The notes under the pieces were generated by a model. That model had not been told where the DNA came from and did not search any database. It saw only the letters and a list, made by a program, of their open reading frames with translations. A DNA stretch of 64,000 bases from Candidatus Bathyarchaeota archaeon (GTDB lineage: Archaea; Thermoproteota; Bathyarchaeia; Bathyarchaeales; Bathycorpusculaceae): NCBI GenBank assembly GCA_963707955.1, contig OY970176.1, positions 1,152,001-1,216,000 of the forward strand. The letters are read 5' to 3'. Both the position numbers and the translations under genes were made by a program. Of the stretch, positions 21,076 through 22,858 are shown in pieces (positions within the stretch are counted from its first letter, which is position 1; each line of letters opens with the position of its first letter).

Positions 21076-21630
21076 TTAATTCTCTGAAAGCGTTTTCAAC
21101 CCATGTGATCTTAGGGGTTCAATGATGCTGGGTCTGCTCAGTATTCGCAGAACCGCGTAACCTATGACTGCGATAGCTACTAGACTGCTGACCAAAAGGC
21201 TGATCAGCGTCGTGATCCAAGCTGGCAAGAACGCGAGCTCTGCAGGTTGATAAGGATAGTATATCCACAGATACCCGCCGCCAACGATGATTCCTATGGG
21301 CAAAGCACCTGCGATGCACGCTAGCAACTTATGCTTCTTCAGTAACAATACGAGGCTTGCCGCCACAAGATTGGCTAGGGAACCGAAGACTACGTCAATG
21401 AATCCTATGGGTCCGAAAACATTAACAACAGCGCATCCGGCAGTGACTCCGATAACGACAGGCCATCCTAACAAAGCAGTCAATGCAATCAGAAAGTCTG
21501 AAAGGCGCAATTGTATAGGTCCGTAGATTGAAGGGTTTCCGAAAGGAGAAAACGATTGCGCCACGTTGATCGTGGCGTATAATGCTGCAAAAACGGCTGT
21601 CAACGCCACATCTCTAGTGTCAAATCTTAT
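21076..21630 (-). CDS. queT: QueT-family (queuosine precursor, ECF S-component-like) transporter
   Basis: ALTAVFAALY, SIYGPIQLRLSD.L..L, GVTAGC..N.FG..G..DVVFG.LAN. The strong SD GGAGGTGA (21642-21635) points to an ATA start at 21630; the track start GTG 21681 lies in the leader. Confidence 0.82.
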   Translation of the reverse strand: MRFDTRDVALTAVFAALYATINVAQSFSPFGNPSIYGPIQLRLSDFLIALTALLGWPVVIGVTAGCAVVNVFGPIGFIDVVFGSLANLVAASLVLLLKKHKLLACIAGALPIGIIVGGGYLWIYYPYQPAELAFLPAWITTLISLLVSSLVAIAVIGYAVLRILSRPSIIEPLRSHGLKTLSEN

Positions 21631-21697
21631 CCTTTCACCTCCTGCGCCGGGATTTCTATGGCGGAACGGGTGGAGGCCCACTCACCCGCCTAGCACC
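21631..21697 (-). promoter_or_regulatory. Structured 5' leader of queT, candidate translational riboswitch
   Basis: TATA-like TTTAATAA at 21723-21716; stem GGCGGGUG/CACCCGUU whose loop carries anti-SD GCCUC(C); hairpin CGCC/GGCG; then CA-GGAGGUGA. Confidence 0.5.
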
Positions 21698-21985
21698 TAA
21701 GAAGACGACAGATGTTTATTAAATATTACTGAGACTCGCATACTAGTATTCATCGCACGAGCGTTCAGGATAGAAAATCGGGCGCGAGGCCATCGAGAAG
21801 ACTTCACAAGTAGTCGCCGCGCGCGAAGATCGCATCAAAGTATTTGCTGCAGAAAAAGCCGAGAGGGTAGACGTGTTAGACGAGTAAAAACGCGAAACAG
21901 GGAATGTTAACGGATCGATGGAGAAACGCGTAGCAAGAAGTAGCTGTGGGGCATCAATAAGCGCCGTAAAAACACGTTTCAAACA

Positions 21986-22858
21986 CTATTTCGACATTAA
22001 CAATCTGAGAACGAGAGCAACAGAAGTTGAGGTTGCGACTATAAGCGAGATCAGCAACACCACCTGCCGCTCGGTCAAGGAACGATGAAACGTGAGAAGG
22101 GTGATCAAACTCCGCCTGTGATCTGAGGACAGTTTTTTACCATCAAAAGAGACAGCTGCCTTGGCTCTATAGATGAAGAAGGTTAGCAATATCAACGCAG
22201 AATTGAAGATATAGGGCAGAACAGACACTACCATGTCCAGCTTCAAATCTGATATGATCCCGAAAGAAGCCAACGTCATCCCTATGGTGAAAGATCCCGT
22301 GTTGCCAACAAAGATCTTCCCCTCAAAGTTTAGGGCAGCAAGGATAAGCCACGCGGCCAGAGGTCCATAAAGCAACACTCCATTTGACCCTGACATAGCC
22401 ATCAACCCCATCATAATTATCGCCGGACAGACCGTTTCCAAACCGTTCAACCCGCCCAGCTGATTCACCGTATTCGTCACTATAGTGACAAGCACCGGAA
22501 CTATCACAAGGTAGTACCAGACACCGAAGTTGATCGTACCCAACAACGGAATTGCCATATACGTGCGAATATGTATATTATACGCGAACGCGGCAAGAGG
22601 CATTGCAGCAACCAGAGGAAGAAACGCTTTGAAACGCCACTTGAGATCTATCCAGTCATCAAGCAACCCCATGAAGCCACCGAACAACACGCACACGGCC
22701 AGCGTCAAGGGCGGAGAAACCCCGTTTGAGACTTTGACGATGTTTAAAGAGTACAGGAGAAACAAGTACACAACGCTGATCAGAACGTAGAAGATACCGA
22801 GGCCGTTAGGAACCAAAGGCTTGTTTGGTTTGTGCAGGTCAGGAGCCCTAGGAAACAA
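21986..22858 (-). CDS. aglH: UDP-GlcNAc:dolichyl-phosphate GlcNAc-1-P transferase (AglH/DPAGT1/MraY family)
   Basis: DLHKP..P.VP..G, GLLDD, NTVNQLGGLNGLE, KIFVGNTG; directly downstream of aglB. Confidence 0.82.
   Translation of the reverse strand: MFPRAPDLHKPNKPLVPNGLGIFYVLISVVYLFLLYSLNIVKVSNGVSPPLTLAVCVLFGGFMGLLDDWIDLKWRFKAFLPLVAAMPLAAFAYNIHIRTYMAIPLLGTINFGVWYYLVIVPVLVTIVTNTVNQLGGLNGLETVCPAIIMMGLMAMSGSNGVLLYGPLAAWLILAALNFEGKIFVGNTGSFTIGMTLASFGIISDLKLDMVVSVLPYIFNSALILLTFFIYRAKAAVSFDGKKLSSDHRRSLITLLTFHRSLTERQVVLLISLIVATSTSVALVLRLLMSK

Follow-up and report, generated by a model that had tools for sequence, protein, structure and literature searches.

Riboswitches of the preQ1 family comprise three classes, all of them bacterial, which control queT and queCDEF through pseudoknots that sequester the Shine-Dalgarno (SD) sequence (PMC11625349). 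The 2024 review that describes them makes no use of the word archaea (PMC11625349). According to the same review, class II (preQ1-II) is an HLout knot with helices P1 to P4 and is limited to Bacillota, class III (preQ1-III) is approximately 100 nucleotides (nt) long, and in class I (preQ1-I) the cytosine that sets specificity belongs to an AC or UC step adjoining the P1 3' strand on its 5' side (PMC11625349). Archaea are reported to use very few riboswitch classes, those named in a 2017 survey being thiamine pyrophosphate (TPP) and fluoride, with occasional flavin mononucleotide (FMN), Mg2+-I and guanidine-II (PMC5473149). Here, a 58-nt leader directly upstream of queT is described from a stretch of 64,000 nt (the window; positions 1,152,001 to 1,216,000 of contig OY970176.1, assembly GCA_963707955.1) of a Candidatus Bathyarchaeota archaeon, which an original prediction had proposed to be a candidate archaeal preQ0/preQ1 riboswitch. 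The prediction also held that no validated archaeal preQ riboswitch was known, in agreement with the literature, in which no prior report of one was found, with subscription papers and supplements, which could hold one, outside the scope of the search.

The leader comprises minus-strand positions 21692-21635 (UAGGCGGGUGAGUGGGCCUCCACCCGUUCCGCCAUAGAAAUCCCGGCGCAGGAGGUGA) followed by AAGG and then the codon ATA at 21630. All of the strings and pairings listed in the prediction were found base by base on the minus strand, including the TATA-like TTTAATAA (21723-21716), the hairpin loop GCCUC(C), GGAGGU (21642-21637), the GGCGG/CCGCC pairing and the downstream QueT frame. Upstream regions of relatives carry the leader with covariation in two helices, P1 and P2, and in a pseudoknot with the SD, confirming the proposal that it is conserved and structured. 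From the comparison of sequences it is close to certain that the leader acts as a cis-regulatory RNA, is conserved and contains both P1 and the anti-SD/SD pseudoknot. Conserved covarying structure in the 5' untranslated region (UTR) of functionally coherent genes, the general mark of a riboswitch, was found, and it is rather probable that the 58-nt leader is a cis-acting riboswitch of a new class that forms an H-type pseudoknot and acts as a translational OFF switch.

The motif is like preQ1-II (RF01054), which controls translation only, in its location in a queT 5' UTR and in an HLout (H-type) knot with a last helix composed of the anti-SD and the whole SD (PMC11625349). The HLout arrangement by which P3 of preQ1-II is the anti-SD/SD helix was also found, a likeness in working principle only. 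It is unlike preQ1-II in that there is no covariance-model match and no conserved embedded P4, the other helices and conserved bases differ, and it occurs in archaea and not Bacillota. Archaea are moreover expected to handle preQ0 rather than preQ1. The preQ1-II topology originally proposed, with an embedded hairpin (P4) just before the SD, fails because this loop-3 hairpin is not conserved.

With preQ1-I (RF00522, types I-III) the motif shares a small H-type knot, an A-rich stretch after the P1 3' strand, an SD in the 3' strand of the second helix and the association with queT and other que genes (PMC11625349). The class I order of strands (P1, L1, P2 5', L2, P1 3', A-rich L3, P2 3') is that of the covarying strands and AAA tail of the motif, which on this basis is nearer to the classical H-type knot of class I type, the alternative hairpin P2 being an addition. 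It is unlike class I in its size of ~58 nt (class I is about half the size of class II), a second helix of 6-7 bp, long loops and the alternative P2, and the AC or UC step is absent, with an invariant G, a conserved U and then the U of the closing G-U pair in its place. That the leader is a very divergent bacterial preQ1-I member and not a new class is improbable, although the strand order, a minimal natural variant of ~50 nt (L262) and one copy in a bacterial-titled metagenome-assembled genome (MAG; L218) are consistent with it, since none of 21 instances matched RF00522 at E up to 10, the specificity step is replaced, and the loops and second helix are about twice as long. The queT association and HLout pseudoknot are also common to preQ1-III (RF02680), an aptamer of ~100 nt with a distal P5 platform (PMC11625349), whereas the motif is 53-67 nt long, contains the SD inside the knot and gave no match to the model. 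The archaeal TPP, fluoride and related classes are cis-acting metabolite or ion sensors in leaders (PMC5473149), a function predicted for the present motif. Those classes were first found, and are commonest, in bacteria according to the same text, whereas the motif is almost only in archaeal-titled records, with 29 strong copies versus one weak copy in a bacterial-titled MAG among the matches listed.

When Rfam 15 was searched at E up to 10, no model, RF00522, RF01054 and RF02680 included, matched window positions 21400-21900 or the motif in 20 further diverse loci, in which three chance matches lie away from the motif. At the gathering score none of the models matched anywhere in the whole window. 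The results support the view of the original prediction that the leader lies outside the known preQ1 classes. The motif lacks what defines each preQ1 class, though it works alike as an SD-sequestering H-type knot before queT and other que genes.

Covariation in P1, P2 and the pseudoknot

Covariation was evaluated in an alignment (A5) of 131 distinct leaders produced with MAFFT and not fitted to any structure, with 3' partners slid by 1-3 columns and 500 shuffles as controls. P1 is formed by GGCGG(G)/(U)CCGCC and P2 by GUGG(G)/(C)CCAC. Together, 96.4% of the P1 and P2 cells were paired versus 45-67% with slid partners, and 77 cells had double changes versus 16.0±3.4 in shuffles, none of the 500 reaching 77. 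The outermost P1 pair is G-C in 94 leaders, A-U in 21, U-A in 3 and C-G in 2; the fifth is G-C in 113 and C-G in 17; and all 131 leaders have the closing G-U pair. In P2 the second pair is U-A in 100, G-C in 12 and C-G in 9, and the P2 stem is longer in some homologues through paired insertions.

The pseudoknot pairs the SD with the P2 loop and the beginning of the P2 3' strand. Its cells were paired in 86.0% versus 52-61% with slid partners, double changes numbered 123 versus 55.5±12.3 in shuffles (0 of 500 as high), and all 7 pairs vary on both sides. The anti-SD/SD variants include CCUCCC-GGGAGG, CCUCCU-AGGAGG, CCUUCC-GGAAGG, CCCUCU-AGAGGG, CACCUCC-GGAGGUG and CUCCCA-UGGGAG, together with CUCGCA-UGCGAG and UUCGCA-UGCGAA in a divergent variant from Asgard archaea. 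The covariation of the anti-SD with the SD upholds the H-type (HLout) pseudoknot of the original prediction. In an all-against-all scan of the A5 columns, the pairs with the highest mutual information were, in order, from P2, P1, P1 and then the pseudoknot. An alignment-free test was also conducted in which SD regions were permuted among 113 leaders (five rows were dropped and a few 3' segments were imprecisely cut). The mean duplex energy of the hairpin with its own SD region was -14.02 kcal/mol versus -12.86±0.18 kcal/mol with permuted SDs, and 0 of 5000 permutations were as low.

The last base of the anti-SD (window 21672) has a G as its partner in P2 and covaries, in addition, with the nucleotide on the 5' side of the SD core (C-G 101, U-A 9). 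In 12 sequences this base is U and P2 keeps a G-U wobble. Since the base is used by both helices, P2 and the full pseudoknot cannot coexist. A natural minimal form of ~50 nt (L262, G331:C1:506554-509603) lacks P2 and retains P1 and the knot as well as the conserved unpaired words, a result suggesting that P1 and the knot are the core fold and that P2 is an alternative that frees the SD.

The other two elements of the earlier model were not sustained. The 8-bp stem (21690-21683 with 21672-21665, two terminal pairs being G-U) had 0 double changes, and 432 of 500 shuffles paired as well. In 17-18 sequences with GGCGCG the stem has a C-C mismatch while P1 is intact, in 17 through a change from G-C to C-G. 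The hairpin of loop 3 (21663-21660 with 21648-21645) overlaps the covarying P1 3' strand, was paired in 70.7% of cells with no covariation, and has its second pair unpaired in 88 of the 131 leaders. The GGCGG/CCGCC pairing, proposed as a competing fold, covaries and is retained, not as a competitor but as the closing helix P1. The fold with the 8-bp stem and small hairpin (-16.2 kcal/mol) is isoenergetic with that of P1 and P2 (-16.1 kcal/mol), and the window sequence alone therefore cannot choose between them.

Invariance, or conservation of at least 90%, was found at approximately 20 unpaired positions. They include the G-U-G that follows P1, the CCGUU that leads into the P1 3' strand and the loop-3 word AAAYCCCGG, and these words are still recognisable in other classes and in the Asgard variant. 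By analogy, loop 3 may dock into the minor groove of P1. Pairing of the CCCC(GG) part of the tail with CGGG of P1 or the G-run of P2 was rejected, as the 17 GGCGCG sequences compensate in the P1 3' strand and not in the tail; no tail column was among the top mutual-information pairs. The conserved unpaired positions also bear on a structure that acts without any ligand, as a constitutive translational attenuator, an RNA thermometer or a stability element. SD-masking hairpins can act as thermometers, and P2 and the knot are close in energy. Such a role is nonetheless very improbable, since a mere SD mask does not need ~20 unpaired positions that are near-invariant across classes and two phyla, and the element is restricted to 7-deazaguanine genes.

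Distribution of the motif and the genes behind it

QueT homologues are present in 52 of 61 related genomes. A near-identical leader is located directly 5' of queT in 28 of 30 QueT loci, with proteins 42-97% identical to the window QueT, and in the remaining two it sits ahead of an operon. A covariance model (R1) built from the 28 queT leaders found two copies in the window's own genome, that of the window (78.4 bits) and one (G000:C1:820429-820485, 57.9 bits) directly 5' of a second QueT paralogue. This paralogue (G000:C1:819969-820485) is 36% identical to the window QueT, and its motif copy belongs to a subtype without the A before P2. In the class of the window's genome R1 matched 94 of 151 genomes, and 55 of 80 genera had at least one match. 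In a sample of the phylum, 30 of 151 genomes had the motif, 17 of them among the 131 genomes outside the class. In the phylum of an Asgard-titled record it was found in 20 of 121 genomes, with 10 strong and 10 weak matches (23-27 bits), the weak ones being the divergent variant, each 5' of a QueT-like open reading frame (ORF).

A scan of all species genomes with a loose IUPAC pattern gave at least 120 stretches and is not a census. Among the matches listed, 89 failed to match R1 at E up to 0.01 and are fortuitous, all in bacterial-titled records, whereas 31 matched R1, with 29 strong (all archaeal-titled) and two weak (bacterial-titled). The titles of the 29 strong records listed are mostly Bathyarchaeia or Bathyarchaeota, plus Methanomethylicota, Nitrososphaerota/Thaumarchaeota, Promethearchaeota and unclassified archaea. 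One weak record, a MAG titled Candidatus Deferrimicrobium sp., has a divergent copy (L218:666-733, 23.2 bits) 5' of a clear QueT gene (E 3.2e-32), for which gene transfer or mis-binning could be the explanation; the match in the other (L228) does not adjoin a QueT-type gene. At L026 (G027:C2:89416-92754) queT is apparently split by a frameshift and the leader has lost P2 and P1 pairs, so that this locus looks like a decaying copy.

The first downstream ORFs of the motif copies, with three contig-end copies and two duplicates left out, encode QueT in 133 of 139 distinct cases, a QueE-like protein in one and a membrane protein of 237 aa in five. The QueE-like ORF (L192) encodes a radical-SAM protein with five best NCBIfam matches that are all to QueE, full length and below curated cut-offs, and L225 is a second QueE-like case behind the motif. 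At L024 the motif stands before an operon in which a QueT-like gene comes first, then queC (E 5.1e-62), queT and a gene for an HD-domain protein. The 237-aa family replaces QueT behind the motif at L072:215-910, L073:1811-2497, L094:218-919, L096:218-919 and L184:5327-6022. No Pfam or NCBIfam match was obtained for it, and a profile comparison with QueT aligned only 23 N-terminal columns with a probability of 48.5%. Look-alikes in a language-model atlas are named "ECF transporter S component" (score 0.94; ECF, energy-coupling factor), a lead only, and the family is a candidate new 7-deazaguanine transporter.

The window's own genome encodes queC and queD side by side, three genes of the tRNA-guanine transglycosylase (TGT) family and EcfT. 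The queC and queD genes adjoin two of the TGT-family genes (316 and 389 aa) at G000:C1:898050-907770, and the third (540 aa) lies elsewhere; archaeosine synthase-like or DNA-modification roles are possible for these TGT-family genes. QueF was below the cut-off in this genome (24 bits versus 27.3), and preQ1 synthesis is therefore not evident there. Archaea insert preQ0 into tRNA in the formation of archaeosine. Since preQ0 is the shared product or cargo of the que genes, it is the most likely ligand. The same RNA and knot could respond to another effector, such as guanine or another purine, 7-carboxy-7-deazaguanine, queuine or the archaeosine base. The gene context alone points to the ligand, the substrate of archaeal QueT is putative and one downstream family, that of 237 aa, is without assigned function. 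Such an effector is nevertheless unlikely, as QueT, QueC and QueE together bracket preQ0 as a common product or cargo, and no purine salvage or synthesis genes were found among the 139 first downstream ORFs.

The leader might instead be bound by a protein or a tRNA, for example by a TGT-family enzyme or another RNA-binding regulator that stabilises the knot. Autoregulation through a protein would equally account for the conserved unpaired bases and the SD-sequestering fold, there are three TGT-family genes in the genome, and some short stretches of the leader may resemble words of the D-loop and T-loop of tRNA. Binding of this kind is distinctly unlikely in view of the genes next to the motif, which include no conserved regulator and differ between loci apart from queT, of the absence of a match to the tRNA model or any other Rfam model at E up to 10, and of a size and anatomy that are those of small pseudoknot riboswitches. 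The idea of a tRNA mimic, for which the tRNA model gave no match, is kept only as part of this low-probability alternative.

A candidate translational switch

An SD-sequestering switch for archaeal 7-deazaguanine supply, as originally proposed, is well supported by comparative genomics, with translational OFF control the most likely function. In the mechanism envisaged, the leader would begin at most a few bases from the 5' end of the mRNA. In the open state P1 would enclose P2 and P2 would hold the anti-SD, leaving the SD free and queT translated. In the closed state P1 would be kept and the top of P2 would open, and the anti-SD (GCCUCC) would pair with the SD GGAGGU, hiding the ribosome-binding site in a knot that runs from P1 5' through loop 1, anti-SD, loop 2, P1 3' and A-rich/C-rich loop 3 to the SD. 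A 7-deazaguanine, most likely preQ0, would bind the conserved unpaired bases at the junction of P1 and the pseudoknot and stabilise the knot, turning off QueT and, in other genomes, queC and queE. Three things we consider, taken jointly, moderately likely: binding of a small molecule by the leader, preQ0 as the molecule bound, and a shutdown of translation on binding.

Several observations weigh against this interpretation. The aligned sequences are related and the shuffle control therefore overstates significance, so that the argument is carried by the slid-partner control and the distinct pair types. The window sequence is no stabler than its shuffles, with a minimum free energy of -29.3 kcal/mol versus a shuffle mean of -29.29 kcal/mol (z = 0.00). 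The 8-bp stem is pairable in 93.1% of A5 cells, and it may yet form as a third conformer. The conserved tail AAAYCCCGG had no covarying partner in the all-against-all scan of A5 columns, which leaves its role a guess. The R1 search found no motif copy at the queC-queD cluster of the window's own genome, and the ligand could be another purine-like compound. The location of the motif at the mRNA 5' end is deduced from the position of the promoter signal. Finally, the codon at the expected start, ATA, is non-canonical, and if translation starts at GTG 21609 the SD is at least 25 nt away and the logic weakens for the window copy.

More tentatively, the motif may be the first riboswitch class native to Archaea, selective for preQ0, a compact H-type knot unrelated in sequence to the three preQ1 classes and present in Bathyarchaeia, other Thermoproteota and Asgard archaea, in which it would control 7-deazaguanine uptake through QueT and a new ECF-S-like protein as well as synthesis through QueC and QueE. 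If so, a fourth and mainly archaeal class before queT, queC and queE would indicate convergent RNA solutions for the sensing of 7-deazaguanines, and would provide a direct handle on the archaeal balance between salvage of the archaeosine precursor and its synthesis. The motif would also be a small natural aptamer likely tuned to preQ0 over preQ1, for which the minimal form L262 would be useful in structural work. Transporters still without annotation, the 237-aa family among them, would further be marked by the motif as related to 7-deazaguanines, and the motif would be a ready-made regulatory part for uncultured Bathyarchaeia and Asgard archaea, for which genetic tools are lacking.

Promoter, start codon and coordinates

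With the first base of P1 as the reference point, 130 upstream regions showed an A-rich peak at -40 to -36 and a T/A-rich peak at -34 to -26, with 47 matches to TTWAWA beginning between -35 and -30. The TATA-like signal noted in the window is thus positionally conserved across homologous upstream regions. Applying the usual archaeal spacing between TATA box and start, transcription would begin a few bases 5' of P1, which would place the motif at the 5' end of the mRNA.

Translation of QueT from GTG 21681, within the motif, was a possibility raised against the leader from the outset, and the conservation would then reflect an N-terminal extension of the protein. The frame is open from this codon as an ORF of 201 aa. 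However, an in-frame stop is present between the equivalent of GTG 21681 and 12 nt past the motif in 56 of 107 distinct QueT loci, and the motif lengths modulo 3 are distributed over all three classes (54, 32 and 21 loci). The downstream frame is that of QueT, whose Pfam match (PF06177, E 2.4e-24) does not start until residue 26 of the 201 aa, and nucleotide conservation of the stretch exceeds protein conservation. A start at GTG 21681 is accordingly unlikely, and a coding origin of the conserved stretch is barely tenable.

A TTG (50), ATG (29) or GTG (17) is located 2-13 nt past the SD core in 96 of the 107 loci. The other 11 (the window, L002, L003, L017, L019, L027, L038, L040, L044, L055 and L168) have no ATG, GTG or TTG at 2-13 nt from the SD and in most cases have ATA or ACG instead. 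ATA is at the start position in the window and its two closest relatives and ACG in several other loci, which suggests near-cognate initiation behind a strong SD or beginning gene decay. The probable start of the window queT is ATA 21630, and the in-frame GTG 21609 (21609-21607) is less likely given the SD spacing. The features of the locus are collected in the table.

Table. Features of the queT leader and its surroundings, in window coordinates.
Feature	Position	Strand	Evidence
Whole conserved RNA motif (G000:C1:1173635-1173692)	21635..21692	minus	covariance model R1 match, 78.4 bits, E 9.4e-22
P1 5' strand GGCGGG, last base in the invariant G-U closing pair	21685..21690	minus	pair counts, alignment A5
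P1 3' strand UCCGCC	21660..21665	minus	pair counts, alignment A5
Unpaired junction UGA, U invariant; candidate pocket residue	21682..21684	minus	invariant and near-invariant A5 columns
P2 hairpin GUGG-GCCU-CCAC, alternative structure carrying the anti-SD	21670..21681	minus	A5 pair counts; -4.5 kcal/mol alone
Anti-SD GCCUCC, 5' strand of the pseudoknot	21672..21677	minus	both sides of all 7 knot pairs vary
Single-stranded CCGU joining P2 to the P1 3' strand; putative pocket residues	21666..21669	minus	G invariant, CC and U at least 90% conserved
Tail AUAGAAAUCCCGG, A-rich then C-rich, loop 3 of the pseudoknot	21647..21659	minus	AAA and last C invariant
Shine-Dalgarno GGAGGUGA; pseudoknot 3' strand 21642-21637 (GGAGGU)	21635..21642	minus	sequence, knot covariation, energies
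Probable start codon ATA (near-cognate), 4 nt past GGAGGUGA	21628..21630	minus	homologous start positions
queT coding sequence, 184 aa counted from ATA; ECF transporter S component for queuosine/archaeosine precursors	21076..21630	minus	Pfam
TATA-like box TTTAATAA, -33 to -26 from the first P1 base	21716..21723	minus	sequence; homologous upstream regions
Predicted transcription start region, a few bases 5' of P1	21691..21697	minus	TATA position and usual archaeal spacing

A minus-strand ORF of 79 aa (21743-21982), located in the 355-nt gap between a glycosyltransferase gene (21986-22858) and the motif, is probably spurious.

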